From NCBI GenBank assembly GCA_047601445.1, contig JASGJH010000001.1, positions 2,592,001 through 2,656,000 of the forward strand: 64,000 bases of DNA. The letters are read 5' to 3'. Below are positions 220 to 20,538 of this stretch, piece by piece; positions within the stretch are counted from its first letter, which is position 1; every line of letters starts with the position of its first letter. The notes under the pieces were generated by a model. The model did no database searches, was not told where the DNA came from, and saw nothing but the letters and a program-made list of their open reading frames with translations. The stretch comes from Myxococcales bacterium. GTDB taxonomy: Bacteria > Myxococcota_A > Polyangia > Polyangiales > DASUME01. A program made the position numbers and the translations under genes.

Positions 220-1449
220 TCAGGGCATGCATTGCGGGTTGCAGTTCGCAGCGTCGCAGCTGGTGAGCGAGTAGGCCGCGCCCGACGGACGCGAGGGAGC
301 CGAGGCGCGCTTGAGAATCTCGGCCGTACCCGTGGAGATGGCTGCTTGGTTGCAAGCCGCCGAGGTAGCGCATACGCCGGTGGCCAGGGCCCACTGCGCG
401 CGGCAAGGTCCATCGGCATTGCCCGGCGTCTGACAGGCGGTCGACGGATCCTTGGTGCCGCAGAAGCTCTCGATGGGTCCGTTGGTGCCGTCGTAGCCGC
501 TCTTGTGCTCGAACATGCAGTTTCGAAGATCGACGCAGAGCTGGACCAGCGTGGCGTCCGTCTTGTCGAAGCACTCGCCGACCGCGTTGTACGTATCGAA
601 GTCCCGGCAGTTGTCTTCGCGGCACTGCTTGCAGGCCGCCTTCTGCTCAGGCTTGTCTCCGTAGACGACCCCTGCGTCGCTGCCGCCACCGCCAGCATCA
701 TGCTGGTGTCCAGCATCGGACCCGGAGCCACCCGCGTCCGCGTGGTGGCCAGCGTCATGTCCGGCGTCTGCGTGAGTGCCGCCGTCGTGAGTGCCAGCGT
801 CGTGACCGCCGCCCGCGTCGCTCGCTCCCGTGCCCGAATCCATCGAGCCGTCGTCCGTGCCCGAGTCCAGCGGATACGTGCAATCCGTCCGACACTCGTC
901 GGTATCCACGGCGTTACCGTCGTCACACTGCTCGCCCAAATCCAGCAGGCCGTTGCCGCACAGCGCAGGGGCCAGCGTGCAGTCGCTGCGACAGCTGTCA
1001 CCGTTGGCCTGATTGCCGTCGTCGCACTCCTCGGTGGGACTCTTGATGCGATCGCCACAGCGTACGAGGGTGCAGCGTGGCGTGCAGGTCGCACTGCCCT
1101 CGGCGCCGTCGTCGCACTCCTCGCCACCGTCAACTTGGCCGTTGCCGCAGCCGGCGGGGGTCTCCACCTTGCAGCGCGAGTCGCAGCCGTCGCCGTCGCG
1201 CTCGTTGCCGTCGTCACAGACCTCGTCGCCAACCAAACAGCTGTCCCCGCAGGCATTGGCGATGCACGCCCCGTAGACGCAGTGGCTCAAGCCCTCGCCG
1301 CAGGGTGTGCAGTCGGGTGCCTGGTCACAGCTGGCCTGTTTGGACTCTCCGCCCTGATCGGGCGCCGTGTGGAGCAGCTCGATCTTGCGATCGTCGCCGC
1401 AGCCGACCAGCGGTAGAGCGAGGCCCAGCAGATAGAATGCCCTTCGCAT
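220..1449 (-). CDS. Lipoprotein with four Myxococcus Cys-rich (DUF4215-type) repeats, His/DAG-rich linker and Cys-rich C-terminal domain
   Basis: Start moved to MRRAFYLLGLALPLVG-C (lipobox, GGGAG RBS); CGxGxxxxxEECDDGN-type repeats; HDAG linker. Confidence 0.85.
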   Translation of the reverse strand: MRRAFYLLGLALPLVGCGDDRKIELLHTAPDQGGESKQASCDQAPDCTPCGEGLSHCVYGACIANACGDSCLVGDEVCDDGNERDGDGCDSRCKVETPAGCGNGQVDGGEECDDGAEGSATCTPRCTLVRCGDRIKSPTEECDDGNQANGDSCRSDCTLAPALCGNGLLDLGEQCDDGNAVDTDECRTDCTYPLDSGTDDGSMDSGTGASDAGGGHDAGTHDGGTHADAGHDAGHHADAGGSGSDAGHQHDAGGGGSDAGVVYGDKPEQKAACKQCREDNCRDFDTYNAVGECFDKTDATLVQLCVDLRNCMFEHKSGYDGTNGPIESFCGTKDPSTACQTPGNADGPCRAQWALATGVCATSAACNQAAISTGTAEILKRASAPSRPSGAAYSLTSCDAANCNPQCMP

Positions 1450-1497
1450 GAGATCTCCCTCGTGCCTGGTTGACGGCGCGAGCATCTGCGGGACGGC

Positions 1498-2076
1498 TCA
1501 GAGCTTGGCCGTGCCTGGTTCCTTCTCGAGACAGACTTTGCAGAAGCGCGCTTCGCAAACTCGCAGCGCGTGGGCCACGCCGAGCGGACGCTGGACGTTG
1601 TCGTATTTGTGCATCATTTCAGTGAGCACGGTCTCGCGTGCGGCCGTCCAGAACACCTGCTGGCACGGGCCGTTGGGCGCCGTCTTGCCAAACACACAGG
1701 CCTCCGTCTCCACGGTGCCGCAGAAGCAATCGATGGTGCCCATGGGCCCGATGCCACAGTGATTCTCGGACATGCACTTCTTGGCGGCGGTGCACTGCTC
1801 GGTGAACAGGGGGTCCGCGTTCGCGAAGCAGTCCTTGATGGGATTGAAGTTCATGCCTTCGATGTTGCTGCACTGGCGCTGCCTGCAGGCGCGGCACGAG
1901 TTATCGGCCTGGGCGGCGTCTCCCGTGGTGATTTCGCCGGGAACGGCCTGGGCAGCCTGGGGAGGCTCGACCTTCGCGGCGCTCTCGGCGACCGCCGGAG
2001 CCTCGGCCTCGGGCTTGTTACACGCCACGGCCAGCGCGGCGAACGAGCAAACCAAGAGAACAGCTTTCCAGCGCAT
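1498..2076 (-). CDS. Small lipoprotein consisting mainly of the shared Cys-rich domain
   Basis: MRWKAVLLVCSFAALAVA-C lipobox; CRAC...FCGT...NGPC...RPLG motif order matches neighbours' C-termini. Confidence 0.8.
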   Translation of the reverse strand: MRWKAVLLVCSFAALAVACNKPEAEAPAVAESAAKVEPPQAAQAVPGEITTGDAAQADNSCRACRQRQCSNIEGMNFNPIKDCFANADPLFTEQCTAAKKCMSENHCGIGPMGTIDCFCGTVETEACVFGKTAPNGPCQQVFWTAARETVLTEMMHKYDNVQRPLGVAHALRVCEARFCKVCLEKEPGTAKL

Positions 2077-2145
2077 CACGGGAGGACTCCTGAGCTCGCG
2101 CGAGGGGGTCTCGCAGCACGAGCAGCCAGGCCTTCCTAGCTCGGA

Positions 2146-2178
2146 CATGAGGACGACTCGGTGACAACTCGGCGAACG
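2146..2178 (-). promoter_or_regulatory. Possible pho-box-like direct repeats upstream of the 1498..2076 gene
   Basis: Minus strand cgTTCGCcgag ttGTCACcgag tcGTCCTcatg, 11-bp period. Confidence 0.4.
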
Positions 2179-2304: not shown

Positions 2305-2342
2305 GGTTTCGAGCGCTTTGAGGAAACGCTCAGCTACTCAGC

Positions 2343-3977
2343 TCACTGGGGCTTGCAGACCGCGCAGTTGGCGGAGTCGCAGTTGGTGAGCGAGTAAGCA
2401 GCACCCGAGGGACGGCTGGGGCTGGAGGCGCGACCGAGGATGGTGGCCAAGCCGCCGTCGATGGCAGCCTGGTTGCAAGCCGCAGCGCTGGTGCAGACGG
2501 AGGTGGCAAGGGCCCACTCGACGCGGCAGGGGCCGTTGGCGCCGCCGGCGTTCTGGCAGGTGGTGGAGGGATCCGCGGTGCCGCAGAAGCTCTCGATGGC
2601 GCCGTTGGTCGGGTCGTAGCCGCTCTTGTGGTCGTACATGCAGTTACGCAGGTCGACGCAGAGCTGGACCTTGGCGGAGTCCGCGTCCTCGAAGCAGTGA
2701 CCGACGGCGTCGTAGCTGTCGAAGTCACGGCAGTTGGCCTGGCGGCAGGTCGCGCAAGCGGCGATCTTCTGGGCCTTATCGGTGACGGGGCTAAGCTTGC
2801 AGTTGGTCTCGCAGCCGTCGCCGTTCACGAGGTTGCCGTCGTCGCAAGCTTCGACGCCCGCCTGGACAACCGCGTCGCCGCACTTGGCATTCTGGCACTT
2901 GGGCGTGGTGGCGTCGTAGGTGCAGGTGTCGGTGTTGATCAGGTTGCCGTCGTCGCACTGCTCGTTGAGCGAGGCCTGGACGATGCCGTCGCCGCAGCCG
3001 GGGTTGCGGCAGCTGTTCGGGCAAGCGTCGGTGTTGACCTGGTTGCCGTCGTCGCAATCCTCGCCGGGATCGACGCGGGCATTGCCGCAGGCGATGGTCT
3101 TGCAGGTGGTGGCGCAGGTGTCGGCGTTGCTGCCGTTACCGTCGTCGCACTCTTCGACGCCCGTGAAGACGACGCCGTCGCCGCAGACGTTGTTCTTGCA
3201 GTTGTCCGTGCAGGCGTCGTTGGGCGTGTTGGGGGTGTCGCACTCTTCGACGCCGCTGACCGCTCCGTCGCCACAGGCGATGGACTGGGTGCACTCGACG
3301 GTCATGGTGAGCGCGTCGTGGCAATCGCCAAGGTTCGCGATCGTGGCCGTGATGGTCTTGATGCCGGGGGTGGCGCAGGTGTAGACCGTGTCGTAGCCGG
3401 TGCCGACGGTGAAGGTGCCGTCCGTGGCCGTCCACTTCACATCGCTGTCACCGTGCGAGATGCCAGCCGTGAAGGCCATGGTCGCGCCGGTGAACGCCTC
3501 GGCGGGAATCGCCTGGAGGGTGGTGACGAGCGGACAGGACTTGAACTGACCGTCGACGATGAGGTCGGCCTTGTCGTCCGTGGCCTGGCAGGTAAGGACC
3601 ACCGTCACGGAGGTGGTCTGGTTGTTGATGATGTTGAACATCTGCGAGCCCTGGCAGGGCTGGTTGAAGCTGGTGGTCGCGCCGAGCGCGATGGTGTAGC
3701 CGTTCTGGATCGGGAGGTTGCCGACGCGGAAGGCGAGCTTGGAGCTGTTGCCCACCGGAACCACGCCGTTGCGGATGAAGCCGCCGGGGCCGGTGATGCT
3801 GTAGTTCACGCTGGTGACTTCGCTGTCGTCGGGCAGCGTAAGGGCCATGCCGAGCTCACCGACTTCGTGATTGCTCGCGCCGATCTTTCCGTTGTCCTTG
3901 GTGGACTCGGTTCCACACCCGCCAACGGCCACGGAGCCGATAGCGAGCGCGGCAAGTACGCTCTTGTAGAGTTGCAT
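2343..3977 (-). CDS. Lipoprotein: beta-rich N-terminal region, five Myxococcus Cys-rich (DUF4215-type) repeats, shared Cys-rich C-terminal domain
   Basis: MQLYKSVLAALAIGSVAVGG-C lipobox with AGGAGG RBS; five CGDG..E.CDDGN-type repeats; strongly GC3-biased codons. Confidence 0.9.
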   Translation of the reverse strand: MQLYKSVLAALAIGSVAVGGCGTESTKDNGKIGASNHEVGELGMALTLPDDSEVTSVNYSITGPGGFIRNGVVPVGNSSKLAFRVGNLPIQNGYTIALGATTSFNQPCQGSQMFNIINNQTTSVTVVLTCQATDDKADLIVDGQFKSCPLVTTLQAIPAEAFTGATMAFTAGISHGDSDVKWTATDGTFTVGTGYDTVYTCATPGIKTITATIANLGDCHDALTMTVECTQSIACGDGAVSGVEECDTPNTPNDACTDNCKNNVCGDGVVFTGVEECDDGNGSNADTCATTCKTIACGNARVDPGEDCDDGNQVNTDACPNSCRNPGCGDGIVQASLNEQCDDGNLINTDTCTYDATTPKCQNAKCGDAVVQAGVEACDDGNLVNGDGCETNCKLSPVTDKAQKIAACATCRQANCRDFDSYDAVGHCFEDADSAKVQLCVDLRNCMYDHKSGYDPTNGAIESFCGTADPSTTCQNAGGANGPCRVEWALATSVCTSAAACNQAAIDGGLATILGRASSPSRPSGAAYSLTNCDSANCAVCKPQ

Positions 3978-4055: not shown

Positions 4056-4279
4056 ACACGCAACTAATTGAGGTTCGTCTCGTACATCTCTGGGCACGGA
4101 CAGCTTGCGTCGCTGAAGGTTACCGGCCGCGGAGCGTGAAGACCCTTTGCGCGGTTAATCGTGCACTCAGCTCGTCCTGAGCATTCGCAGTCTGCGAGAT
4201 CTGAAGGTCGCGTCTGCACTCAACACTACGCGAGCGAGTTCATTCGCGCATCCACAGGTCCATACGAAGAAGTTCCGTG

Positions 4280-4335
4280 AAATCACTGTTAGGCCATCTG
4301 AGAGCCGCAACTCCGTAACAAGGAGGGTCTACGAG
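4280..4335 (+). promoter_or_regulatory. Pho-box-like promoter for PstS-fold copy 1
   Basis: Four 11-bp units aaATCACtgtt agGCCATctga gaGCCGCaact ccGTAACaagg, then agggtc TACGAG. Confidence 0.6.
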
Positions 4336-4375: not shown

Positions 4376-6310
4376 ATGAACAAGAAAGCTATCGCATCCG
4401 CGCTAGCGCTCGGCCTGGCGAGCACCGCCAGCGCTCAGCTTAAGTTGAAGGGCTCGGACACGCTCTTCGAGATGACCCAGGAGATGCTGACGCTCTGTCA
4501 GATCAGCCCCACCGACCTCACCTATGATGGTGGCGGTTCGGGCGGCGGTCAGGCCGCGATGGCCGCGGGCACGCAGCGCGTTGCTCCCATGTCGCGCTTC
4601 ATCAACGCCGCGGGTTGCAGCGGTGCCGGCCCCGGCGACACGACCACGCGCTCCGGCTACGCCCACTCGCTCGACGCGATCGGCCTCTTCTCCGACAACA
4701 AGGAAGACACCACCTGCGACGACCTCGTCCACGACGCCGTCCTCACGATTGACCCGGCGGCCAACGGCAACGCCGGCGGCGACCCTGCCACCGAGTGCCC
4801 CAACTGCTCCGGCAACCAGTACACCATCAGCCAGTGGCAGCAGGTCCTCCGCATCGTCTACACCGGCCGTCACGACAACGTCCCCGGCTACAACGAGTGT
4901 TCGTTCGACCCGCCCGGCGCCACCGCCGGCGCGCGCAACTGCAGCAGCGACGTCCGCTACACGCTGGTGAACAACTGGGGCAACCTTTTCCAGGGCGGCT
5001 GCACCAATCCCGAGTGCACCACCCTCAAGCACGCTTTCCGCCGCGACGACATCTCCGGCACCACCGACACCTTCCTCGCCTTGATCTCCGTCAAGACCAT
5101 GTTCGCCAGCAACAGCGAATACCAGGGCGCTGACATCTTCTGCAACGGCAGCGAGTTCGAGGACAAGGACCCGATCCGTCGTACCTGCAGCGGCAACGGC
5201 GGCACCGGCGGTGAAGACGTCTGCCAGCGCACGACCTTCGCCCGCGAAGTTCCCTCGGTCGGCGTCCGCGTCGGCACCCTCTACCCGCAGCTCGAGAACG
5301 TGTGGCCGGCCGTCACCGCCGCCATCGTGCCCCCCGCGGCTGCCCCCGGCGACCTCGGTCTCGTGCTCCCGATCGTGATGCCCACGGATCCGGCCCAGCA
5401 CTACCCGAACAACAACGCCTGCAACGGCGACTACAAGCTTGCCTCCATGCCCACCTCGACCAACGGCGAAGAGCGCTGCCCGAACGGCGACTTCAAGAAC
5501 GGCGGTCTTTGCTACTGGCCCGTCGACGACGCGGGTAACTTCGGCTGCGTCGTGCAGTCGAACTTCCGCCCCGGCACCGGCGCGCTCGGCTTCAACAGCA
5601 AGATGGACGCCCGCGTGTACAACCTGACCACGCGCCTCCTCAACGGTCAGATCCCCACCGTCTCGCGCAAGCCCTCGGCGGCGCAGAACCCCGCCAACCG
5701 CACGTTCATCAACGGCGCCTTCTACCGCATCCATCAGAAGACCGCGGAGACCCAGGCCACCGCCGGCACCTTCTGCCGCGAGACCAACGACACCGCCCAG
5801 ATCGGCTGCCTCGTGCAGGCCAGCCCCTGCTCGCTCGGCTACGCCGGCCTCGCCGCCCAGACCAGCGACGCCAACGGTGACCCCATCGCCAACACCAACA
5901 AGTCCCTCGGTATCCGCGCGCCGCTCGCCAGCGCCGGCATCCAGTACCCCAGCAAGACCACCGCTCGTCGCCTGCTCTCCACGCCGGCTGGCGGCGCCAC
6001 GGGCACCTGCTCGGACTTCGGCTCGCGCTACCCGCTGTCCCGCAAGCTCTGGTTCAACACCTTCGTGGGCTTCAATAACCTGGCCGCCGGTGGCGCCACG
6101 GCCGCCGAGCAGCAGCTCGCTCGCTGCTTCGGCGACCGTCGCTTCACGGACCGCGCTGCCAAGCACGCCGGCTTCATCCTCCTCACGGACAACACCTGCT
6201 TGACCGACACCCTCCCCAACCCCGCGACCGTGTTCTCGCCGGACCCCACCTGCACGCTCACGGACGACAACCCCAGCTACGAGTTCTCGACCTGCGCCGT
6301 CAACCCCTGA
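4376..6310 (+). CDS. Secreted Cys-rich PstS-fold (phosphate-binding-protein-like) protein, copy 1
   Basis: Signal peptide ending ASA-Q; PstS-like motifs KGSDT, GGGSGGG, PMSR, RRDDISGTTDTF, LGYAG, YPLSRKLW; 24 Cys; AGGAGG RBS. Confidence 0.85.
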   Translation: MNKKAIASALALGLASTASAQLKLKGSDTLFEMTQEMLTLCQISPTDLTYDGGGSGGGQAAMAAGTQRVAPMSRFINAAGCSGAGPGDTTTRSGYAHSLDAIGLFSDNKEDTTCDDLVHDAVLTIDPAANGNAGGDPATECPNCSGNQYTISQWQQVLRIVYTGRHDNVPGYNECSFDPPGATAGARNCSSDVRYTLVNNWGNLFQGGCTNPECTTLKHAFRRDDISGTTDTFLALISVKTMFASNSEYQGADIFCNGSEFEDKDPIRRTCSGNGGTGGEDVCQRTTFAREVPSVGVRVGTLYPQLENVWPAVTAAIVPPAAAPGDLGLVLPIVMPTDPAQHYPNNNACNGDYKLASMPTSTNGEERCPNGDFKNGGLCYWPVDDAGNFGCVVQSNFRPGTGALGFNSKMDARVYNLTTRLLNGQIPTVSRKPSAAQNPANRTFINGAFYRIHQKTAETQATAGTFCRETNDTAQIGCLVQASPCSLGYAGLAAQTSDANGDPIANTNKSLGIRAPLASAGIQYPSKTTARRLLSTPAGGATGTCSDFGSRYPLSRKLWFNTFVGFNNLAAGGATAAEQQLARCFGDRRFTDRAAKHAGFILLTDNTCLTDTLPNPATVFSPDPTCTLTDDNPSYEFSTCAVNP

Positions 6311-6469: not shown

Positions 6470-6514
6470 CAATCACTCCGCTGACAACACGTCGTCACAA
6501 CAGGTGTTTACCAG
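6470..6514 (+). promoter_or_regulatory. Pho-box-like promoter for PstS-fold copy 2
   Basis: caATCACtccg ctGACAAcacg tcGTCACaaca ggtgtt TACCAG. Confidence 0.6.
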
Positions 6515-6552: not shown

Positions 6553-8487
6553 ATGAACAAGAAAGCTATCGCATCCGCGCTAGCGCTCGGCCTGGCGAGC
6601 ACCGCCAGCGCTCAGCTCAAGCTGAAGGGCTCCGACACGCTCTTCGAGATGACCCAGGAGATGCTGACGCTCTGTCAGATCAGCCCTACCGATCTCACCT
6701 ATGATGGTGGCGGTTCGAGCGGTGGTCAGTCCGCGATGGCCGCAGGCACCCAGCGCGTGGCTCCGATGTCGCGCTTCATCAACGCCGCCGGCTGCACCGG
6801 CGCCGGCCCCGGCGACACCACCACCCGCTCCGGCTACGCCCACTCGCTCGACGCGATCGGCCTCTTCTCCGACAACACCGAAGACACCACCTGCGACGAC
6901 CTCGTCCACGACGCCGTCCTCACGATTGACCCAGCGGCCAACGGCAACGCCGGCGGCGACCCCGCCACCGAGTGCCCGAACTGCACTGGCAACCAGTACG
7001 TCATCAGCCAGTGGCAGCAGGTCCTTCGCATCGTCTACACCGGTCGTCACGACGTGGTCCCCGGCTACAACGAGTGCTCCTTCGACGCGCCCGGTGCCAC
7101 CGTTGGCGCGCGCCTCTGCAATAGTGACGTACGCAATACCCTGGTGAACAACTGGGGCAACCTCTTCCAGGGCGGCTGCACGGATCCCGAATGCACCAGC
7201 CTCCGGCACGCCTTCCGCCGCGACGACATCTCCGGCACCACCGACACCTTCCTTGCTCTGATCTCGGTCAAGGGCATGTTCGCGAGTAACGGCGACTATC
7301 AGGGCGCCGACATTTTCTGCAACGGCAGCGAGTTCGAGGATAAGGATCCCATCCGTCGCTTCTGCAGCGGCAACGGCGGCACCAGCGGTGAGAACGTCTG
7401 CCAGCGCCTCGTCTATGCTCGCGAGGTTCCCTCGGTCGGCGTCCGCGTCGGCACCCTCTACCCGCAACTCGAGAACGTATGGCCAGCGATCATCGCCGCC
7501 GTCGTGCCTCCTGGGCCCGCGGCAGGCGATTTGGGCCTCGTGCTCCCGATCGTGATGCCCACGGATCCCGCCCAGCACTACCCGAACAACAACGCCTGCA
7601 ACGGCGACTACAAGCTCGCGCCCATGCCCACATCGACGAACGCGGAAGAGCGCTGCCCGAACGGAGACTTCAAGTACGGCGGCCTCTGCTACTGGCCCGT
7701 CGACGCCGCAGGTAACTTCGGCTGCCTGGTGCAATCGAACTTCCGCCCCGGCACCGGTGCCATTGGCTTCAACAGCAAAATGGACGCCCGCGTGTACAAT
7801 CTCACCACGCGTCTCCCCAGCGGTGTGATCCCGACCATCTCGCGCAAGCCCTCGGCCGCGCAGAACCCAGTCAACCGCACGTTCATCAACGGCGCGTTCT
7901 ACCGCATCCACCAGCGCACCGCGGAGACCCTGGCCACCGCGGGCACTGTGTGCCGCGAGAGCAACGACACTGCGCAGATTGGCTGCCTCGTGCAGGCCAG
8001 TCCGTGCTCCATCGGCTACGCGGGTCTCGCGGCGCAGACCAGCGACGCCAACGGTGACCCCGTCGCCAACACCAACAAGTCCCTCGGTATCCGCGCGCCG
8101 CTTGCCACGGCGGGTATTCAGTATCCCAGCAAGACCACCGTTCGTCGCTTCCTCGCGACGCCGGCTGGCGGCGCCACCGGCACCTGCGCCGACTACGGCT
8201 CGCGCTATCCGCTGTCGCGCAAGCTCTGGTTCAACACCTTCGTGGGCTTCAACAACCTCGCCGCCGCTGGCGCTACGGCCGCCGAGCAGCAGCTCGCGCG
8301 TTGCTTCTCTGATCGGCGCTTCGTCGACCGCGCTGCCAAGCACGTCGGCTTCGTCACGCTGACGGACAACACGTGCGTGAGCGACGCGCTGCCGAACCCC
8401 GCGACTGCGTTCTCGCCGGACCCCACCTGCACGCTCACGGACGACAACCCGAGCTACGAGTTCTCGAGCTGCGCTGTGAATCCCTGA
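6553..8487 (+). CDS. Secreted Cys-rich PstS-fold protein, copy 2 (tandem paralog)
   Basis: Same 644-aa length as copy 1 and colinear with it; identical RBS region ggcagcaggaggaaagtcacATG. Confidence 0.85.
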   Translation: MNKKAIASALALGLASTASAQLKLKGSDTLFEMTQEMLTLCQISPTDLTYDGGGSSGGQSAMAAGTQRVAPMSRFINAAGCTGAGPGDTTTRSGYAHSLDAIGLFSDNTEDTTCDDLVHDAVLTIDPAANGNAGGDPATECPNCTGNQYVISQWQQVLRIVYTGRHDVVPGYNECSFDAPGATVGARLCNSDVRNTLVNNWGNLFQGGCTDPECTSLRHAFRRDDISGTTDTFLALISVKGMFASNGDYQGADIFCNGSEFEDKDPIRRFCSGNGGTSGENVCQRLVYAREVPSVGVRVGTLYPQLENVWPAIIAAVVPPGPAAGDLGLVLPIVMPTDPAQHYPNNNACNGDYKLAPMPTSTNAEERCPNGDFKYGGLCYWPVDAAGNFGCLVQSNFRPGTGAIGFNSKMDARVYNLTTRLPSGVIPTISRKPSAAQNPVNRTFINGAFYRIHQRTAETLATAGTVCRESNDTAQIGCLVQASPCSIGYAGLAAQTSDANGDPVANTNKSLGIRAPLATAGIQYPSKTTVRRFLATPAGGATGTCADYGSRYPLSRKLWFNTFVGFNNLAAAGATAAEQQLARCFSDRRFVDRAAKHVGFVTLTDNTCVSDALPNPATAFSPDPTCTLTDDNPSYEFSSCAVNP

Positions 8488-8860: not shown

Positions 8861-8882
8861 GCGGCACGGAGTTGTCACCAAT
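8861..8882 (+). promoter_or_regulatory. Pho-box-like repeat pair upstream of the cytochrome gene
   Basis: gcGGCACggag ttGTCACcaat, 11-bp spacing. Confidence 0.5.
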
Positions 8883-11900: not shown

Positions 11901-12862
11901 GACCACCCGGAGCAGCCGGCGGCAACATTGCGCGCATCTTCGATGTGGGCAGCGGCGTAGCCGCCGAAGACTGGGCCGCGCGCTACGTGGTGTGGATGGG
12001 CTTGGGTGGAACGACACGAACCATCCCAGCACCGGTGTTGGGTCTCGTGTTCAACAACAACGTCTTCGGCGAGCCCCGCGGTGGCGGCACCACGATTGCG
12101 GCTACTGACGCCAACATGCTCACCGTGCCACGCAAGCTGTGTCAGAATTTGCTCGACGCGAGCGAGGGCCTCACCTCCTCAGGCTTCACTCTGAGCGGAG
12201 ATCCCAACTCAGATGCCGTGTGGGGCGTACGCGATCCTTATGCCCATGGAAGCGCCAAAGATGTGCTGCTCTCCACGAGCGGCGATCGCGAGATGTGGGA
12301 GCGCATTTGCTCCTTCCAGAATCTAAAGCCTCTGATCGTCGTGGAGCCGGTCTACGGCAAGGATGAAGCCAAGAACCTCATCGTGAGCTCGCTGAAAGTG
12401 AACTTTGCGCCCCGCGAGTCCTATGGGAGCACTCGTGCCGTGGGCGATCCACGCCGCGTCGATGCCTCTGGGCAACCCCTCAACGGCATTTCAGCCGGTA
12501 TCCACGACGACAATCCCGAGCCCTGGTGCATCGTCAATCCCACGGGTGCTCAAGCAGACGCGCTCAATGCGTACCTGGCGGCCCTTGATGCCTCGAAGGC
12601 CCCCCTCTGCCCCCCCGAGCTGCAACCCGGTACGACTGCGATGCTGAACTACGACCTTCCTTCGGTGGCAGAGAACCCAGACCAAAAGACAGGCCGCGCG
12701 TCGATGGAAATCTGGAGCATCCGTGGCGCCATGAACGCGGGCCTCGCCGTGTACCTCTATCTCGAAGCGCTCACGCACGGGAAGCCCGCGGCGGTGCCCT
12801 ACGACCACTGCGAAGAGCTCAACGTCACCGACACGGGCGCTGAAGTGATGTGCGGGCCCTGA
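8960..12862 (+). CDS. Large multiheme (4x CxxCH) cytochrome c lipoprotein; central part resembles SO2930-family diheme cytochromes
   Basis: Lipobox LAA-C; CGNCH, CNHCH, CAHCH, CSSCH; motifs LWADNAKK, FYKTF, VETRLIV, YVWN, NCAHCHNPRG. Confidence 0.8.
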   Translation: MVTGLRRIRLLALALACAELAACGDNLADKTQGELAAPDAAADVEDAQVPEQVTDLSCTPVVTSDNLPARTAAMSERGGGGGGSAAVTTEQLFQAFKGRCGNCHSSGSNSGNFAIPLASNFATTFDSVVLSYIQSNDPDKVMPPIDSPEGKLYQDRAADDPVRKFAELTQAWIAAGKPADAFFPPAEATPVGVGFTLPRRVGLALTNLGNCIPSPDLVGTETQESQKLDDMFAGLKSSDELPDRLEATDLVSLDSAVLASHGVIGFAPAYTLWADNAKKMRAVRVPRGKSIEFDAATQSFKIPDNTRFYKTFMREVVDHRGNKSYRKVETRLIVARADIEKEGCDPEPQALFGTYVWNEAETEAVLNKDRLRNGSGFRDRLITYITDEQKADELIAEGPENIQAALADAHLSRHYGLPGSERCNHCHMGSGSKSFILGFTPLQINRRPLDQGGVIEPAERDELNQLQRLISYGVITGIDPAHLDQVNLLENSQGDRKPRNDYELRAQGYMVGNCAHCHNPRGYPSRLARELRDGLIFAPSAEDGHGIFQFPLDKVSPRIRRGSKLDHSIPYLSPSLYDLAGQGYSYKLHDELTKNPDHTVDAPWRSLIYRNVDAPFSYSADFAIFPHMPMDTPGYDCRARRILGSWMVSIPAKFKYGALGCVDASVNPNRNTIDHHLGETEVIIRTSDKEWTYGEAVGGTRLTSDELDAIEHDPQQYAEVKPSDSDFLVENLRAQGRVKQFTISSRYNDCQDPSVDMVDPDILAGKRVTPSSVQAWPLRDADGKPMIEAAPDAGVDAGTYYATYDFGSPNDIELGTTGMPSHSHWSETDLTETTSKWEPRRSDWQDPVVDKKKSAWTGHDDDTWEYSAIDLLEKLPKVADYRTFATTDLPVTHWLAKPECDLSAQPKDSTFTGAQRMRWMGAEGSSDTPVYMQSPGAFVFGQVCSSCHGPKADSKGRQAATIADMTAGETRVANLRDGLLGPPGAAGGNIARIFDVGSGVAAEDWAARYVVWMGLGGTTRTIPAPVLGLVFNNNVFGEPRGGGTTIAATDANMLTVPRKLCQNLLDASEGLTSSGFTLSGDPNSDAVWGVRDPYAHGSAKDVLLSTSGDREMWERICSFQNLKPLIVVEPVYGKDEAKNLIVSSLKVNFAPRESYGSTRAVGDPRRVDASGQPLNGISAGIHDDNPEPWCIVNPTGAQADALNAYLAALDASKAPLCPPELQPGTTAMLNYDLPSVAENPDQKTGRASMEIWSIRGAMNAGLAVYLYLEALTHGKPAAVPYDHCEELNVTDTGAEVMCGP

Positions 12863-12890: not shown

Positions 12891-14858
12891 ATGGCGATCT
12901 CTCAAACCGCCGATCAGCTCCTGGCGACGGGCCTCGCGCACCATCGCCAGGGAGATCACAAGGCAGCCGAGCGTTGCTATCGCGCCGTCTTGCAGGACCG
13001 GCCGACGCACACACAGGCGCTCTACCTGAGCAGCGTGATCGCGCTCGAATCAGGGCGCTTCGACGACGCAGTCGCCTTGTTGGAATCGGCCGTCGCTCAA
13101 GCGCCCAAACAGGTCGTGCTGTGGTGCAACTTGGGAGAGGCCCTGCGGCGCTCCGGCCGCCTGGAGAGCGCAACGGCTAGCCTGGAACGCGCAGTCGAGT
13201 TGGGCCCGGAGCACGCGGAGGCCCACGCCAACCTGGGTCTGACCTTCTTTCAGCGTCGCAAGTGGGCCCAGGCCGCTGCCTGCTGTCAGCTCGCGCTGAG
13301 CTTGAATCCGGCGCTGTCCATGTGCAGCGAGCTGCTGATCGACTCCTTGCGTGAGCTCGGAGAGCACACACGCGCGTGCGCTGCCTACGAACGCTTCGCT
13401 GCGGCCAACCGCGGTAGCAGCGGAGTCCATGTGGCCATTGCACGGGTCCTGCTCGCGCTGGGTCGGGTAGACGCAGCCGTGACGCATTGCGAAGCAGCGC
13501 TTACCGCGGGTCCCCGCAGCGCCCACGCGCTGAGTGTCCAGGCGCTCGCCGTGAGTGCTCGCGGAGAGGCCACGCGCGCCACGCGTCTGCTGCGCGAAGC
13601 CATCGCGCTCGAACCTGCGAACGCCCCGATCCACAGCCACCTCGTGTTTTCCCTGATGTACGACCCTGCGGTCGAGTCCGACGAGATCGCCCAGGAAGCC
13701 CGCAGCTACCAGGCTCGCCATCTGCGCGCGATTCCGCGCGTCGAGCACTCTCGCGCCCAAGACCCCGAGCGACGACTGCGCATTGGCTACGTTTCGGGTG
13801 ACTTCAAGCTGCACGCGGCGACGATGTTCATGTTGCCCCTGCTGCGGCACCATGATCGTTCGGAGTTCGACTTCCACTGCTACGCCAACGTGAGCCAGCC
13901 CGACGCGGTGACCGAGGACTTCCAGGCGCTGGCCGACGTGTACCGCGACATCGTCGCCCTCGATGACGCCTCCGCGGCACGCCTGATCCGCGACGACCGC
14001 GTCGACATCCTCGTCGATCTCAGCATGCACTCGGAGGGCCACCGCCTGGGGGTCTTCGCCCACAAGCCCGCGCCCGTTCAGGTCTCCTGGCTGGCGTATC
14101 CGGGCACCACCGGGGTCTCGGCCATCGACTATCGGCTGACCGATCTGCAGCTCGATCCCGCAGGAGCAGTCGAGCAGGAATCCTACACCGAGCGCCCCTG
14201 GCATTTGCCGCACAGCTTCTGGTGCTACGACCCGCTGGTCGAAGGCATCTTCCCGAATGCACCGCCGGCCCTCACGGCTGGTCACGTCACGTTCGGCAGC
14301 CTGAACAATCACCGCAAGGTCAACGACCTCACGCTCACGCTCTGGGCGCGTGTGTTGGCCGCCGTGCCCGGCTCTCGCTTCCTGATGCTGGCGCCGGAAG
14401 GTGAAGCGCGCGTGCGCGCACTCTCGACCTTCGCGCGCTTCGGGGTCGAAGAAGATCGCGTGACGTTCGTGGCAGCGGGCATGCGACGCGACGTCTACCT
14501 GCGGACCTATCATCGCATCGACTGCTGTCTCGACGCGCTGCCCTTTCATGGCGGAACCACGAGCTTCGACGCCTGGTGGATGGGCGTGCCCGTGATCAGC
14601 TTGGTCGGGAAGACGGTGGTCGGTCGCATGGGCGCAAGCATCGCTTGCAACCTTCGTGTGACGAACCTCGTCGCGCACTCTTCCGAGGAATACGTGGCCT
14701 GCGCAGCCTCGTTAGCGCGTGACCTCGGTGAGCTCGCAACGCTTCGAAAAGAATTGCGAACTCGCATGGAATCCTCGGTATTGATGGACGCTTCGCGTTT
14801 CGCGCGGGAGCTCGAGGTCAGCTATCGCGAGATGTGGCGACAATGGTGTCTGGGCTAG
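12891..14858 (+). CDS. TPR-containing GT41 (SPINDLY/O-GlcNAc transferase-like) glycosyltransferase
   Basis: N-terminal TPRs; LRIGYVSGDF..H, DILVDLSMH, PAPVQVSWLAYPGTTG, TFGSLNN..K, D..PFHGGTTS, WMGVPV. Confidence 0.9.
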   Translation: MAISQTADQLLATGLAHHRQGDHKAAERCYRAVLQDRPTHTQALYLSSVIALESGRFDDAVALLESAVAQAPKQVVLWCNLGEALRRSGRLESATASLERAVELGPEHAEAHANLGLTFFQRRKWAQAAACCQLALSLNPALSMCSELLIDSLRELGEHTRACAAYERFAAANRGSSGVHVAIARVLLALGRVDAAVTHCEAALTAGPRSAHALSVQALAVSARGEATRATRLLREAIALEPANAPIHSHLVFSLMYDPAVESDEIAQEARSYQARHLRAIPRVEHSRAQDPERRLRIGYVSGDFKLHAATMFMLPLLRHHDRSEFDFHCYANVSQPDAVTEDFQALADVYRDIVALDDASAARLIRDDRVDILVDLSMHSEGHRLGVFAHKPAPVQVSWLAYPGTTGVSAIDYRLTDLQLDPAGAVEQESYTERPWHLPHSFWCYDPLVEGIFPNAPPALTAGHVTFGSLNNHRKVNDLTLTLWARVLAAVPGSRFLMLAPEGEARVRALSTFARFGVEEDRVTFVAAGMRRDVYLRTYHRIDCCLDALPFHGGTTSFDAWWMGVPVISLVGKTVVGRMGASIACNLRVTNLVAHSSEEYVACAASLARDLGELATLRKELRTRMESSVLMDASRFARELEVSYREMWRQWCLG

Positions 14859-14907: not shown

Positions 14908-14941
14908 TTGGCACCAAACCGTCACAAACCATCACTACTTC
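14908..14941 (+). promoter_or_regulatory. Pho-box-like promoter for the 14983 lipoprotein gene
   Basis: ttGGCACcaaa ccGTCACaaac catcac TACTTC. Confidence 0.7.
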
Positions 14942-14982: not shown

Positions 14983-16461
14983 ATGACGATGCTCAAGCGC
15001 ACCCTCCTGGCTCTCACGCTGGCGAGCTCCACCGCACAACTCGCCGCTTGCGGCAGCGATGAACCTTCGGACGGCCCTTCGCACCAGGGCGACGGCGACG
15101 GCGACGGCGATGCCAGCATCCCGACGGGCGACGGCGACGCTGGCAACCAGGGCGACGGTGGGACGACCCCCGAAGGCGAGAAGGGCCCCGAGCTTCCCTC
15201 CTGCCCCTCCGATCCTCACATCACGGCCGACGCCACCAACAAGGTCTGCCTGATCAGCGCGCCCAAGGGCAACGAGATCAAGACCAACCTCACGCTCAGC
15301 CGCGTGAAGGACTACAAGGGCTACGTGTTCCAGGGTGTCGTGTACGTCGGTGAAGACGTCGGCCACGACGCGACCCCGGCCGCTGGCAAGGCCCAGGCGA
15401 CCCTCACCATCACGCCCGGCACCGACCTGGCCGGCCTCGACAACACCTCCGGTCTCGCCATCAACCGCGGCTCCAAGCTGATCGCCGAAGGCCTCAAGAC
15501 CGCGCCCATCACCTTCACCAGCGTCAACGCGCTGCTCGGCACCGGCGTCGCGGCGCCCACCGACTGGGGTGGCGTCGTGCTGATGGGCCGCGCCACGCAG
15601 AACGTCGGCGTGGACCCCGTCACCGAGCTCGACACCGGCTCCTACGGCGGCGCTGACGACCACGACAACAGCGGCTCGCTCAAGTACGTCCGCGTGATGT
15701 TCTCCGGCGCGCGCAGCTCCAAGGAGAAGGAGTTCAACGGCATCACGCTCTACGCGGTCGGCGACGCCACCAAGATCGAGTACGTGCAGGTCCACGCGGG
15801 CAGCGACGACGGCATCGAGTTCTTCGGCGGCACGGTGAACGTCAAGCACGTCGTGATCAGCGGCGGCGGCGACGACAACCTCGACTGGACCGATGGCTGG
15901 CGCGGCAAGGCCCAGTTCGTGCTCGCCAAGCAGGTCCCGAACTTCGGTGACAACGGCCTCGAGGCCGACAACCAGAAGACCAACAACTCCCTCATCCCCG
16001 TGTCCGAGCCCACGCTGGCCAACCTGACCTTCCTGGGCCAGGTCACGGCCCCCGGCGAGAGCGGTCCCAACGGCTTCCTGCTGCGCGCCGGAACCAAGGG
16101 CCACATCTACAGCGCCGTGGCCACCAACTTCAAGAACAGCTGCGTCAACGTCGACGGCGACGTGAGCCAGGCTTTCGTGGGCACCGACGCCCTCACGATG
16201 GTGTCCAGCCGCATCTCCTGCTCCGTGAGCTACCTCGGCAAGGGCGAGCAGCTCTTCACGGGCTCTGCCACCAACCAGGTGCTGCCCTCGGCCGACGTGT
16301 TCGACAACGCCTACATGCCCAAGGCCGACTCCGGCCTGCTCACCGGCGGCACCGTCCCGGCCAACGATCCCTTCTTCGAGAACGTGCCCTACATCGGCGC
16401 GTTCGGCACCGAAGACTGGACCGCCGGCTGGACCGCGTACCCCGACTTCCAGCCCAAGTGA
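14983..16461 (+). CDS. Surface lipoprotein, probable beta-helix fold, of a type found next to TonB-dependent receptors
   Basis: Lipobox LAA-C; motifs DWGGVVLMG, DNSGSLKYVRV, NGITL, DDGIEFFGGTVN, GDDNLDWTDGWRG, GAFGTEDWTAGWT; GDGDGD linker. Confidence 0.8.
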   Translation: MTMLKRTLLALTLASSTAQLAACGSDEPSDGPSHQGDGDGDGDASIPTGDGDAGNQGDGGTTPEGEKGPELPSCPSDPHITADATNKVCLISAPKGNEIKTNLTLSRVKDYKGYVFQGVVYVGEDVGHDATPAAGKAQATLTITPGTDLAGLDNTSGLAINRGSKLIAEGLKTAPITFTSVNALLGTGVAAPTDWGGVVLMGRATQNVGVDPVTELDTGSYGGADDHDNSGSLKYVRVMFSGARSSKEKEFNGITLYAVGDATKIEYVQVHAGSDDGIEFFGGTVNVKHVVISGGGDDNLDWTDGWRGKAQFVLAKQVPNFGDNGLEADNQKTNNSLIPVSEPTLANLTFLGQVTAPGESGPNGFLLRAGTKGHIYSAVATNFKNSCVNVDGDVSQAFVGTDALTMVSSRISCSVSYLGKGEQLFTGSATNQVLPSADVFDNAYMPKADSGLLTGGTVPANDPFFENVPYIGAFGTEDWTAGWTAYPDFQPK

Positions 16462-16683: not shown

Positions 16684-16717
16684 TAGCAACACAGTTGTCA
16701 CAAAGCGGCCTTAGAAG
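16684..16717 (+). promoter_or_regulatory. Pho-box-like promoter for the TonB-dependent receptor
   Basis: taGCAACacag ttGTCACaaag cggcct TAGAAG. Confidence 0.6.
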
Positions 16718-16756: not shown

Positions 16757-19700
16757 GTGGAGCCCCCGCTGCGCGAGGTGACCCCGCCCGTGCTGGGCAT
16801 GAGGAGGCTCGCTTTGTCTGCCCTACGATCGTTGTCTGCTGCGCTGCTGATTTTGTGTGGGTCTTTACTGGGTGCACAGCACGTCCGTGCTCAGCCCACC
16901 GTCGAAGCAGCCCAGCAAGAACAAGGTGCCGTGCACCTGGTGCTCTTCGGCACCTCCGACCAGCTCCTCGCGGGAGTCACCGTCGAGATCGATGGCCAGA
17001 GCGCCCAGACGGCTCAGGACGGCAGCGTCACCGCGACGCCGACGCCTGGTACGCACAAGCTTCGCCTGCGCGTGCCGCACGCTCTGGTGCCCGAGGCGCC
17101 CACGCAGGATGCCGAGTGGGTCGTCGACGTGTCCGACGTTGCCGTGCTGGCCAATCAGACCACCGAGGTGATGGTCACGTTGAGCCCCTCGGGCGGCATC
17201 GCCGGCCTCGACATCCAGGCGCCCGAGGCCGCTGGCGGCAGCCACAGCCTGCAGCGCGAGTTCCAGGAGAAGGTCGCCGAGCAACCGGCCGGCACCATCC
17301 AGGGCACCGTGACGGCCAAGGAAGATGGCAGCCCCGTGGCGGGCGCGCGTGTCTACGTGCGCGGCGCGCCCGTGGAGACCGCGACCGATGACAACGGCTT
17401 TTTCACGCTCACCATGCCGGCGGGCAAGTGTCAGCTCGCGGTGGTGCATCCCTCGTATGCGACGCAATCGGTGCCCGACGTGGAAGTGCGCGGCGGTAAG
17501 GTCAACGCGGTCACGGCGCAGCTGAGCCCTGCCTCGATGGAAATCGACGAGTTCCTGGTCACCGCGCCGCACATCGAGGGCGGTATCGCGAGCTTGATCT
17601 CCGAGCGACGCGAGAGCTCCAACGTGGCCGACGTGATCGGCGCCGAGCAGATGTCCCGCTCGGGTGCCACCAACGCCGCCTCCGCGCTGTCGCGCGTCAC
17701 GGGCCTCACCGTGGTCGACGGCAAGTTCGTGGTCGTGCGCGGTATGGGCGAGCGCTACTCGAGCATGCTCGTGAACAACATGTTCGTGCCGAGCCCCGAG
17801 CCCACCCGTCGCGTGGTGCCGCTCGATCTGTTCCCGGCCGGCATCCTCGATAGCGTGGTCGTGCAGAAGACCTTCTCGCCCGACGCACCGGCGGAGTTCG
17901 GCGGCGGCGTGATCCAGCTGCGTACCCGCAGCTATCCGGACCGCTTCATGGCCAACGTCTCGGTGGGTGGCGGCGTCAACTCGCAGTCCACCTTCCGCAA
18001 CAACCTCAACTACAGCGGCGGCAAGCGCGACTACCTCGGCATCGACGACGGCAATCGCGCGCTGCCGGGACCCATCGATCACTCCAAGAAGATCACCAAG
18101 TTCAACGCGCTGACGGGCGGCTACACGGACGAGGAGCGCGCCAAGTACGGCAAGATGCTGCGCAACGATCTGCAGGAGAAGCGCGAGCGCACGCTGCCCG
18201 ACCTCACGCTGACGGGCTCCATCGGCAACCGCTGGAACCTGCGCCACGCCAAGATCGGCTTCGTGGCGGCGCTCGGCTACCGCAGCCAGACGCGCGCCCT
18301 GCGCGACAGCCTGCTGCGCAGCGTGACCAACACCGGCTCCAAGCTGCAGATCGACAACGACCTGCGCGTGAACAACACGGAGCGCCAGATCTCCACCAGC
18401 GGCTTCCTGGACTGGGGCGTCGAGTTCTCGGAGCGCAACAAGCTCAAGTTCACCAGCATGCTGCTGCGTCAGACCGACGACACCACCACGCAGCTGAGCG
18501 GCAAGTTCGGCACCGGCGGCGGCAGCACCACGCCCGACAGCGTGCAGACCCGGCTCGGCTGGATCGAGCGTCAGCTCTTCGATCAGCAGATCTCCGGCAA
18601 GCACATCATCCCCAAGCTGAACGACTTCCAGCTCGACTGGCGCTACTCGTTCGCTCAGGCCAACCGCAACGAGCCCGACCGCCGCGACTACTTCTACAGC
18701 GACAATGGCTCGGGCAGCTTCGAGCTGTCGCAGGCCGCCGGCGACTACGAGCGCCAGTGGGGCACGCTCACGGACCGCACCTATCAGGTGGGCCTCGACC
18801 TCACCCAGCCCATCAACATCTGGTCGCAGCTCAAGGCCAAGGCCAAGGTGGGCGGCCTAGTGTACTGGCGCAACCGCGACTCGCACGTGCGCCGCTTCGA
18901 GTTCCAGGGCGGGCTCGACCCGATGACCCTGGCCAAGCCCATCAACCAGATCTACACGCCCCAGCGCATCGACTCGGGCGCCGTGAACCTGATCGAGACC
19001 ACCTTCGCCCAGGACTCCTATACCGCCAAGATGCAGCTCAACGCGGCCTACGCGATGCTCGAGCTGCCGCTGCTGAAGAACCTCGACATCATGGGCGGCG
19101 CCCGAGTGGAGCAGGCCATCATCTCGGTGACCAGCTTCGACCAGTTCAACCCGCTGGCCGGCGCCGAAAAGGCCGAGCTCAGCAAGACGCCCGACGTGCT
19201 GCCCGCCATCACGGCCACCTGGCGCTTCGCCGAAGACTTCCAGCTGCGCGCTGGCTACGGCAAGACCGTGAACCGCCCCGATCTGCGCGAGCTCTCGACG
19301 TCGTCCTACTACGACATCGAGACCGCCAGCACCTTCGCCGGTGTGCCCACGCTCAAGCGCGCCTTGATCGACAACGTGGACGGCCGCCTCGAGTACTACT
19401 TCAGCAGCGACGAAGTGTTCTCGGTGGGTGCCTTCTACAAGCGCTTCAAGGACCCGATCGAGACCGTGTTCCGCAACTCGGCGGACGTGCTGTACACGTT
19501 GCAGAACTCGGACAAGGCGCGCCTGTTCGGCCTCGAGATCGAAGGTCGCAAGCGCCTGGGCTTCCTCGCCGAAGCGCTCGACACCCTGTTCATCGCGGGC
19601 AACTTCTCCTGGATCGACTCCGAGGTGACCTACACCCCGGACGGCCTCAAGAAGACCTCGCGCCCGCTGCAGAGCCAGAGCCCCTGGGTCGTGAACGCCC

Positions 19701-20002
19701 AGCTCGGCTACGACGACGACGTCGAAGGCGGCAGCGGCACCGCGGTCTCGCTGCTCTACAACATCAGCGGTCCGCGCCTGCGCGCCATCGGTAACGCGAT
19801 GGCCGGCATCCCGGATCAGTACGAGCAGCCTTTCCACCAGCTGGACCTGGTGGCGAGCCAGCGCCTGCCGCACAACCTGCAGCTCGGCCTGCGCGGACAG
19901 AACCTGCTCAACGCCACCCAGCGCTGGACCCAGGGCCACATCACCACGCGCGAGTTCAAGCGCGGTGTCTACATCGTGGCCAACCTGGCCTGGAGCTACT
20001 GA
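16757..20002 (+). CDS. TonB-dependent receptor with N-terminal carboxypeptidase-regulatory-like domains (start may be ATG 16799)
   Basis: Plug motifs ASALSRVTG, VRGMGERY, VPLDLFP, EFGGG.I; beta-barrel ending GQNLLN...ANLAWSY. Confidence 0.9.
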   Translation: MEPPLREVTPPVLGMRRLALSALRSLSAALLILCGSLLGAQHVRAQPTVEAAQQEQGAVHLVLFGTSDQLLAGVTVEIDGQSAQTAQDGSVTATPTPGTHKLRLRVPHALVPEAPTQDAEWVVDVSDVAVLANQTTEVMVTLSPSGGIAGLDIQAPEAAGGSHSLQREFQEKVAEQPAGTIQGTVTAKEDGSPVAGARVYVRGAPVETATDDNGFFTLTMPAGKCQLAVVHPSYATQSVPDVEVRGGKVNAVTAQLSPASMEIDEFLVTAPHIEGGIASLISERRESSNVADVIGAEQMSRSGATNAASALSRVTGLTVVDGKFVVVRGMGERYSSMLVNNMFVPSPEPTRRVVPLDLFPAGILDSVVVQKTFSPDAPAEFGGGVIQLRTRSYPDRFMANVSVGGGVNSQSTFRNNLNYSGGKRDYLGIDDGNRALPGPIDHSKKITKFNALTGGYTDEERAKYGKMLRNDLQEKRERTLPDLTLTGSIGNRWNLRHAKIGFVAALGYRSQTRALRDSLLRSVTNTGSKLQIDNDLRVNNTERQISTSGFLDWGVEFSERNKLKFTSMLLRQTDDTTTQLSGKFGTGGGSTTPDSVQTRLGWIERQLFDQQISGKHIIPKLNDFQLDWRYSFAQANRNEPDRRDYFYSDNGSGSFELSQAAGDYERQWGTLTDRTYQVGLDLTQPINIWSQLKAKAKVGGLVYWRNRDSHVRRFEFQGGLDPMTLAKPINQIYTPQRIDSGAVNLIETTFAQDSYTAKMQLNAAYAMLELPLLKNLDIMGGARVEQAIISVTSFDQFNPLAGAEKAELSKTPDVLPAITATWRFAEDFQLRAGYGKTVNRPDLRELSTSSYYDIETASTFAGVPTLKRALIDNVDGRLEYYFSSDEVFSVGAFYKRFKDPIETVFRNSADVLYTLQNSDKARLFGLEIEGRKRLGFLAEALDTLFIAGNFSWIDSEVTYTPDGLKKTSRPLQSQSPWVVNAQLGYDDDVEGGSGTAVSLLYNISGPRLRAIGNAMAGIPDQYEQPFHQLDLVASQRLPHNLQLGLRGQNLLNATQRWTQGHITTREFKRGVYIVANLAWSY

Positions 20003-20061
20003 TACGCTAGGGCTACTGGTTGTCCGAGCTGCTCATTCTTGTGAGAATGGAGACGTAAACG

Positions 20062-20538
20062 ATGCGAACCCTGCTCGTGCTTTCGTTGTGTGTGCTCTGC
20101 GGCTGCGCCTCGGCGCCGAAAAAAGAAGGCTATTCGAAGGTGATTTCGCCGGCTCAGTCCGGCAATCCCACCTCCTGGGACGAGAACGAGATGCGGGCCC
20201 CGGTGGCCATCCGCACGCTGCGGCGCACCCCCGAAGCGAGCTTCCATCTGGCGCGCATCAAGGCCGAGCTCGGACGTCGCCTGCACGAGAAGTCGGATCT
20301 CACGCTGGTGGTCGTGAATGGCCAGCTGGAGCTCTCGCTGGGCGACGAGACGGTCCAGGCCGGCGCCGGCGACGTGGTGGAGATCCCGCGCGGCACGCCC
20401 TACGCAGTGCTCAACAAGGGCCGCGACGCGGGCGTCCTGTACCTGGTGTTCACGCCCGGCCTGGCCGATGACGACACGCGCAACCGTCCGGTCGCGACCA
20501 GCGAAAGCTCCTGGCGCTGGAACCTCTGGCTGCAGTGA
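20062..20538 (+). CDS. Cupin-domain lipoprotein
   Basis: Lipobox LCG-C; H.KSD..LVVVNG...AGDVVEIPRGTP cupin motifs. Confidence 0.75.
   Translation: MRTLLVLSLCVLCGCASAPKKEGYSKVISPAQSGNPTSWDENEMRAPVAIRTLRRTPEASFHLARIKAELGRRLHEKSDLTLVVVNGQLELSLGDETVQAGAGDVVEIPRGTPYAVLNKGRDAGVLYLVFTPGLADDDTRNRPVATSESSWRWNLWLQ

Follow-up and report, generated by a model that had tools for sequence, protein, structure and literature searches.

What would a bacterium gain from encoding, side by side, a phosphate-binding fold that has no transporter and an envelope cytochrome with four hemes? The question is raised by a stretch of 64,000 nucleotides (positions 2,592,001 to 2,656,000 of contig JASGJH010000001.1, assembly GCA_047601445.1; hereafter the window) from the 9.5-Mb, single-contig genome of a Myxococcales bacterium. 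In particular, ten genes, here labelled A to J, occupy positions 220..20538 of the window, with A, B and C on the (-) strand and D to J on the (+) strand. An initial annotation had interpreted this region of about 20 kb as one co-regulated surface system for the capture of phosphorus, composed almost entirely of exported or lipoprotein genes and devoid of pstCAB. Inspection of the N-termini bears out the description of the gene products, as nine of the ten carry a signal peptide or a lipobox, the GT41 glycosyltransferase having neither, and no pstCAB was found in the window, the two pstSCAB-type loci of the host both lying elsewhere in its genome. What stands of the interpretation is an undescribed envelope module whose genes co-occur, with an intact phosphate site and pho-like boxes; what falls is the unity of the 20 kb. 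Specifically, the conserved core consists of D, a PstS-fold protein, and F, a four-heme lipoprotein. We have very little doubt that D and F form a real module, and we consider it rather probable that this module has a role in the phosphate-starvation response.

Gene D (4376..6310, (+)) encodes a secreted protein of 644 amino acids (aa) with Cys-rich insertions, and gene E (6553..8487, (+)) is a tandem copy, 90% identical to it; each product contains 24 Cys, and the remnant of a third copy, namely a frameshifted 3′ part of D, follows at 8635..8781 (+). Pfam models match none of the products of B, D, E and H, and a single-sequence search of the Protein Data Bank (PDB) with D returned nothing significant. 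A profile of D homologs, 316 of which were recovered among 8000 scored candidates, matches PstS structures with an E-value of 2.5e-13 and, in all, seven phosphate-binding or ATP-binding cassette (ABC) binding-protein structures. The predicted structure of D (predicted local distance difference test, pLDDT, 84.5) superimposes on PstS 1twy with a Z score of 20.4 and a root-mean-square deviation of 2.6 over 242 residues, placing it in the class II binding-protein fold, and more weakly on DING proteins (Z about 11) and ModA/TupA (Z about 10). The 11 residues of the phosphate site, whose equivalence to those of PstS is assumed from the known PstS motifs and from the D profile alignment, are all intact in D and in E, and all 11 are kept in 91 of the 107 sequences of an alignment made of D and 106 of its 120 listed homologs, those left out being mainly partial-coverage matches. 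Fetched loci yielded 126 distinct D open reading frames (ORFs), of which 104 were amenable to scoring; no more than one site change occurs in 79 of these, two changes in 4 and at least three in 21. One D subfamily (loci L194, L172, L209, L228 and L155, and a second host copy described below) shares the same site substitutions, Gln, Thr and Ala/Asn, which suggests that its members may bind another ligand.

The possibility that D is the PstS of the host's transporter was rejected. Neighborhoods were gathered around D (52 D-centred loci) and around F (the best 80 of 368 metagenome loci, hereafter the F-centred loci), and pstC or pstA is present in none of the former and in one of the latter; at one more locus, L074, pstSCAB lies about 7 kb away. 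A canonical PstS is encoded elsewhere in 33 of the 38 genomes that carry the module. Moreover, against the curated PstS model TIGR02136 D scores 24 bits and its short form 82.8, the cut-off being 206.6. In other words, D is PstS-like, and both the family cut-off and the linkage to pstCAB separate it from PstS proper. The family comprises 655 clusters at 50% identity (E-value 1e-30 or better), and none of 25 pattern matches in viral contigs was confirmed as a D relative.

The second core gene, F (8960..12862, (+)), encodes a lipoprotein of 1300 aa with a lipobox and four c-type heme motifs (CxxCH, at Cys100, Cys423, Cys514 and Cys944), which are invariant in 119 of 119 aligned sequences. Its model (residues 87-1286, pLDDT 82.1) displays, in this order, an N-terminal cytochrome c, a beta-sheet, possibly P460/c'-beta-like domain with a conserved Lys310, a third heme domain and a C-terminal class I cytochrome c. 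In a wide structural search the two terminal domains resemble ordinary cytochromes c, and residues ~143-398 match five P460/c'-beta chains with Z scores of 3.8-5.7, weak values for a 1200-residue model that may reflect a common arrangement. Lys310 is kept in 118 of 119 F sequences, with a motif spacing like that of the P460 lysine motif and an invariant Glu on the following strand, and it aligns with the P460 lysine only when an insertion is left out (probability 42%, E-value 2.6e-4). The P460 family (PF16694) was not among the Pfam matches of F even at an E-value of 10, and a profile search with F returned only CxxCH-level matches (CcoP, fructose dehydrogenase cytochrome). In addition, four Met residues are invariant in the long and the short forms of F, together with at most three further conserved His. 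From sequence and model we infer that three of the hemes are likely His/Met relays and that the remaining one may be an open, P460/c'-beta-like heme. A review (PMC11928373) describes P460 hemes as open ligand-binding sites and reports one structure with phosphate at the distal face. The anatomy predicted for F, an open heme served by His/Met relays, is more in keeping with an oxidative enzyme than with an Fe(III) reductase. A dense nanowire-type cytochrome was considered for F and rejected, as the protein has four CxxCH motifs in 1300 aa.

The middle region of F matches the SO2930 family (TIGR03806) with an E-value of 1.9e-28; its scores of 99.6 and 109.4 bits do not reach the family cut-off of 313.3, and F has four hemes, not two. 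F combines SO2930-like with possibly P460-like parts and belongs to neither family as defined. Three SO2930-like paralogs of the host (348407-349870, 7323556-7324728 and 9436801-9438060) contain an FPxGTxxxK motif resembling the P460 cross-linking lysine motif, which is plainer in them than in F, so that a P460/c'-beta fold may be common to all of TIGR03806; a single-sequence PDB search with a P460-like paralog gave nothing significant.

Evidence for the module comes from the linkage of its two core genes, observed from both sides. The initial annotation had made its reading depend on homologs of these genes co-occurring in other genomes, and D and F are found together in 38 of 401 genomes sampled from the order, D in 42 and F in 43 (including the unpublished G565), with four genomes carrying D only and five F only; kin among these genomes are not independent. 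In two of the five F-only genomes a short PstS-like gene adjoins F. At the level of loci, F is present in 39 of the 52 D-centred loci, and in 26 of 27 when the locus spans at least 15 kb; conversely, D is present in 40 of the 80 F-centred loci, and in all 15 that extend 7 kb on both sides. Within nine genomes of the same genus, several of them fragmented, the same five have both genes and the other four have neither. Farther away, a family belonging to another order has F in 19 of 46 genomes, and a phylum-wide sample of 301 genomes has D in 2. A minimal version was found in four genomes and consists of a PstS-like ORF of 304-398 aa and a four-heme F of 906-1024 aa, which are direct neighbors in three of the genomes (G610, G611 and G633) and separated by 4.5 kb in the fourth (G652); G611, G633 and G652 are single-contig genomes, and no TPR, signal peptidase or GT41 gene lies near the minimal pairs. 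Even the compact D of G610, with its 304 aa, is paired with a four-heme F. For this pair (F 195-906 and D 24-304, with alignments) complex prediction gave scores of 0.00, 0.72 and 0.00, run without folded controls.

A link to phosphate starvation is suggested by the promoters. The assertion that most transcription units carry pho-box-like repeats holds in the window: a dimer scoring 14.6-15.6 was found in all six intergenic regions longer than 100 bp, with a hand-set GTCAY-N6 dimer matrix (maximum 19) that was written after the intergenic sequences had been seen and whose threshold was set after the scores had been seen. The degenerate 11-bp repeats lie upstream of B (2149..2166, (-), 14.6), in the divergent C/D intergenic region (4276..4293, (-), 14.9), and upstream of E (6482..6499, (+), 14.6), F (8862..8879, (+), 14.6), H (14909..14926, (+), 15.6) and I (16685..16702, (+), 14.9). 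At a background of 0.146 sites per kb per strand, about 0.27 would be expected per strand over 1849 bp. At 16.5 or above the genome holds 37 sites, two of them at pstS and one preceding a gene that we take to be ppk; no module promoter attains this level of the pstS sites. In relatives, scores of at least 14.5 occur in 11 of 70 D upstream regions (3.0 expected), and F upstream regions show no enrichment with the same matrix (3 of 34, 1.35 expected). When 39 F upstream regions were searched de novo, a repeat with an 11-bp period emerged, similar to that upstream of F in the window and scoring at least 17 bits in 11 regions, with a log-likelihood of 125 versus 59 and 65 for shuffles; this motif lacks genome-wide specificity, with 352 sites reaching 14 bits, and gives a poor score, 5.3 bits, at the F promoter of the window. 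Boxes of the same type stand 5′ of pstS in relatives, where individual boxes were used because pstB coding sequence dominated what the de novo search returned for 29 pstS upstream regions. As also noted initially, phoB/phoR-like and phoX-like genes lie downstream in the window (phoR-like 26929-28749, phoB-like 28746-29561, PhoX 39101-40585), with the phoB-like and phoR-like products falling below the PhoB and PhoR model cut-offs; phoB is a neighbor in 3 of 52 D-centred and 5 of 80 F-centred loci. Judged from sequence, the module is probably under Pho control in the host and in some members of the family.

Three further observations concern the same regulatory elements. A second phoB-like gene, 62% identical to that of the window, lies at 8714601-8713882 of the host genome. 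An AT-rich intergenic region contains, at window positions 54609-54637, a triple 11-bp pho-like repeat whose scores of 15.9 and 17.8 rank with the highest in the genome. Finally, the best pho-like score inside the module (17.0, at 3435-3452) falls within the coding sequence of C and is probably due to chance.

A phosphate binder without a permease, an enzyme-like cytochrome and pho boxes are most simply read together as a release-and-capture device. According to this proposal, D or E and F would form the functional core, would be produced under phosphate starvation and would be placed in the cell envelope. F would oxidize, at its open P460/c'-beta-like heme, a phosphorus source that cannot be imported, either a reduced phosphorus compound or organically or mineral-complexed phosphorus, and the electrons would leave through the three His/Met hemes. 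D, presumably in contact with F on whichever side of the outer membrane the two may be displayed, would trap the freed phosphate; strong ribosome-binding sites and tandem copies suggest that it may be abundant. Phosphate would then enter by separately encoded routes, namely the TonB pair H and I or porins, followed by the canonical PstSCAB. That F oxidizes the phosphorus source and D traps the product is a tentative proposal, which we rate as somewhat doubtful in these specific terms. Bolder still, and unlikely in our judgment, F would be the founder of a class of heme-only envelope enzymes, in which a Lys-cross-linked P460-type heme oxidizes a phosphorus compound, not hydroxylamine, and a dedicated PstS-fold protein traps the product.

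A second copy of the module lies in the host genome at 7.024-7.036 Mb (7023987-7035600). It comprises, in one direction, genes for a sigma-54 activator, C-like, B-like, TPR, PstS-like and F-like proteins, the last being 38% identical to F. The activator is sensorless, with its C-terminal helix-turn-helix in another frame (a frameshift or an assembly error); we presume that it resembles SfnR, NCBIfam giving only generic sigma-54 activator matches below cut-off.

Several observations weigh against the release-and-capture proposal, and the second copy provides two of them: the site of its PstS-like protein is altered at 6 of 11 positions, and it has a sigma-54-type promoter, while the regions scanned contain no pho-like site scoring over 14.0. 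The changed site and the different promoter imply that the module can be rewired to another signal or ligand. Elsewhere, too, sensorless sigma-54 activators are commoner neighbors than phoB (11 of 52 D-centred and 13 of 80 F-centred loci), the hand-set matrix finds no box in 59 of 70 D and 31 of 34 F upstream regions of relatives, and 21 of the 104 scored D ORFs carry at least three site changes. D varies in length from about 300 to more than 900 aa, often in tandem copies, and this variation, together with a dedicated signal peptidase, would also suit a structural surface protein. As regards the open heme, the structural match to P460 stays below a Z score of 8, Foldseek found nothing for F at an E-value of 0.001, and the unedited F/P460 profile comparison aligned only the CxxCH.

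The proposal of one co-regulated 20-kb system did not survive comparison of loci. The whole region as a single conserved unit was rejected, the TonB pair, GT41 and the cupin not being core: homologs occur in 3 of 52 D-centred and 7 of 80 F-centred loci for the lipoprotein H, in 2 and 6 for the TonB receptor I and in 8 and 3 for GT41, and in none of either set for the cupin lipoprotein J (20062..20538, (+)). Conversely, three frequent partners had escaped the first description: a TPR protein, a 12-Cys domain and a signal peptidase, the last in relatives. The module extends past the left edge of the window, as the TPR gene continues beyond it; the 5′ end of this gene lies at 1..199 (-) and the entire gene at 2592199-2591240 of the genome. 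It encodes an exported accessory protein of 319 aa with a C-terminal membrane anchor and weak TPR matches in Pfam, shares 39% identity with its counterpart in the second copy, and has homologs in 30 of the 52 D-centred and 33 of the 80 F-centred loci. The 12-Cys domain is found in A (220..1449, (-)), a lipoprotein where it follows DUF4215 repeats at the C-terminus; in B (1498..2076, (-)), a small lipoprotein consisting essentially of this domain; and in C (2343..3977, (-)), a lipoprotein with a conserved N-terminal region (weak PKD match; 20 of 52 and 22 of 80 loci), DUF4215 repeats and the domain. It is present in 37 of 80 F-centred loci and in 48 of the 401 genomes, 38 of these being among the 47 with D or F (including the unpublished G565 and G648). 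It has no sequence match in the PDB; among 92 members no Pfam family occurs in more than one, the Atlas clusters recovered are all unnamed, and a resemblance to CFEM was not supported. Signal peptidase I is encoded in 43 of 80 F-centred loci, usually directly after F, and at neither host locus. The TPR protein, the 12-Cys lipoproteins, the signal peptidase, a DsbA-like protein and GT41 would serve export, folding and display.

The remaining accessory genes are less regular. Gene G (12891..14858, (+)), 28 bp after F, encodes a cytoplasmic TPR and GT41 glycosyltransferase. Gene H (14983..16461, (+)) encodes a pectate-lyase-like beta-helix lipoprotein, assigned to PF28492 by features (0.97) and by structure (template modeling score 0.88), with nothing significant in a single-sequence PDB search; gene I (16799..20002, (+)) encodes a TonB-dependent receptor with PF07715, PF13715 and PF14905. 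Two more H-like beta-helix lipoprotein genes lie at 2554817-2557891 of the host genome, adjoining a ppk-like gene with a strong pho-like box at 2552480. To the left of the window (2582131-2592199) are genes for a matrixin-like protease, a DsbA-like protein, an EGF-repeat lipoprotein, another 12-Cys-domain lipoprotein and a c554-like tetraheme protein, and a similar arrangement of DsbA, EGF and 12-Cys genes exists in one relative (loci L009/L071). Genes resembling exosortase H stand beside some module loci (L023:15236-15817, L067:5404-6024) and possibly serve the C-terminally anchored members.

Among the alternatives, the first to be weighed is that F is a maturation enzyme, which would oxidatively cross-link or modify D or the 12-Cys lipoproteins into a phosphate-binding surface coat or fiber, in the manner of the maturation enzymes MauG and MbnH. 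The nearly one-to-one pairing of D and F, the far greater conservation of F compared with the variable, multi-copy D, the processing-enzyme neighbors (the signal peptidase, DsbA-like, GT41 and exosortase-like genes) and the apparently open heme would all agree with it. However, the F profile has no MauG or peroxidase sequence match, the sole peroxidase row in the structural search is weak (Z 3.9), processing genes are absent from the minimal pairs and the phosphate site of D is mostly intact, so that we hold this explanation to be unlikely. A second alternative makes D the ligand sensor or gate of a periplasmic redox enzyme acting on a substrate other than phosphorus, such as hydroxylamine, NO or an oxyanion, in sensing or detoxification, with phosphate binding or starvation only tuning its activity. 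P460/c'-beta proteins bind or oxidize nitrogen ligands, according to PMC11928373, and the D subfamily with a changed site and the frequent sigma-54 activator neighbors point in the same direction; on the other hand, the neighbor clusters contain no conserved kinase or cytoplasmic output domain, and D, as noted above, may be abundant. We regard it as quite improbable.

The initial annotation had offered, as an example, that the heme protein frees Fe-bound phosphate reductively; ferric phosphate or Fe(III) minerals would be reduced by F at the surface, setting phosphate free for D to capture. F is indeed a multiheme lipoprotein, the P460-type potentials reported in PMC11928373, -340 to -424 mV, are low, and 11 of 80 F-centred loci encode a porin-like protein with an N-terminal CxxCH (weak Porin_O_P match; L033:13620-14813, L032:9343-10620). 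Nevertheless, four hemes in 1300 aa and invariant Met candidates differ from mineral reductases and disfavor the example, and the porin has no tblastn match in the host genome; we consider reduction of this kind very unlikely. As for the porin itself, we take it to be comparable to Cyc2. Equally poor are the prospects of a variable surface adhesin layer, in which D would attach to phosphate groups on minerals, on DNA or on the surfaces of prey and F would be an electron-transfer or scaffold part without a role in phosphorus uptake, since the large, variable Cys-rich insertions and C-terminal repeats of D and the abundance of the 12-Cys domain (117 loci hold 212 distinct copies, of which 161 lie no more than 40 residues from the C-terminus) are offset by the compact D of G610, still paired with its cytochrome, and by the pho-like boxes.

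If the release-and-capture proposal is correct in its bolder form, the module would represent a new route of phosphorus acquisition in Polyangia, carried by a group whose record titles indicate soil, peat and permafrost, and would bring a P460-type active site to the large, uncharacterized SO2930 family. In addition, D, F and the 12-Cys domain provide leads on three unnamed families, and the minimal two-gene versions of G611, G633 and G652 offer a simple system to express and assay.

Compared with known systems, D shares with the PstS of PstSCAB (TIGR02136, PF12849; nearest structures 1twy, 4jwo and 4omb) the fold and the site motifs GSDT, S55, SR and RxDxSGT, but it is about twice the size, has 24 Cys, scores below the family cut-off, has no pstC or pstA beside it and is tied to a cytochrome. 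DING proteins and secreted PstS-type proteins of Pseudomonas are PstS folds that act outside an ABC transporter; in contrast to DING proteins, D does not begin its mature form with DINGGG, is nearer to ordinary PstS and has a cytochrome partner. F resembles the SO2930-family diheme cytochromes in its middle region and differs from them by two extra heme domains and a PstS-like partner; the literature searches made for this family showed passing mentions and no dedicated study. With cytochrome P460/c'-beta (PF16694) F may share the beta-sheet heme fold with a CxxCH at its end (Z up to 5.7) and a Lys at the predicted cross-link position, whereas P460 is a small, stand-alone monoheme protein and F a 1300-aa tetraheme lipoprotein. 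Mineral reductases of the MtrC/OmcS type have dense chains of bis-His hemes, unlike the arrangement predicted for F, with its few motifs, invariant Met and scarce conserved His. For H and I, the precedent is a TonB receptor with a beta-helix lid lipoprotein, as in ElpS and CCNA_00170, Fjoh_0545-0546 and BT4055-BT4056, and H is probably of the ElpS/Fjoh_0546/BT4056 lid type, being likened to it by family and architecture. According to PMC8115612 and 10.1101/2023.03.17.533168, the Flavobacterium pair Fjoh_0545-0546 is strongly induced by phosphate depletion and the receptor Fjoh_0545 carries PF07715, PF13715 and PF14905, the same three families as gene I. These pairs account only for H and I, which are accessory here. 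Transporter-less binding folds encoded with a redox system and not with a permease exist in MxaJ/XoxJ and AioX, which belong to other binding-protein families and work with other cofactors (PQQ, molybdenum); to our knowledge, none of them pairs a PstS fold with a heme-only enzyme. The view that the combination is undescribed agrees with a search of the open-access literature, mostly without subscription papers, in which no description was found. What is new is therefore the combination of parts, each of which comes from a known fold. Phosphate starvation is known to be met with binders, transporters and hydrolases; to these, a heme redox enzyme conserved alongside a phosphate binder would add a new kind of phosphorus scavenging.

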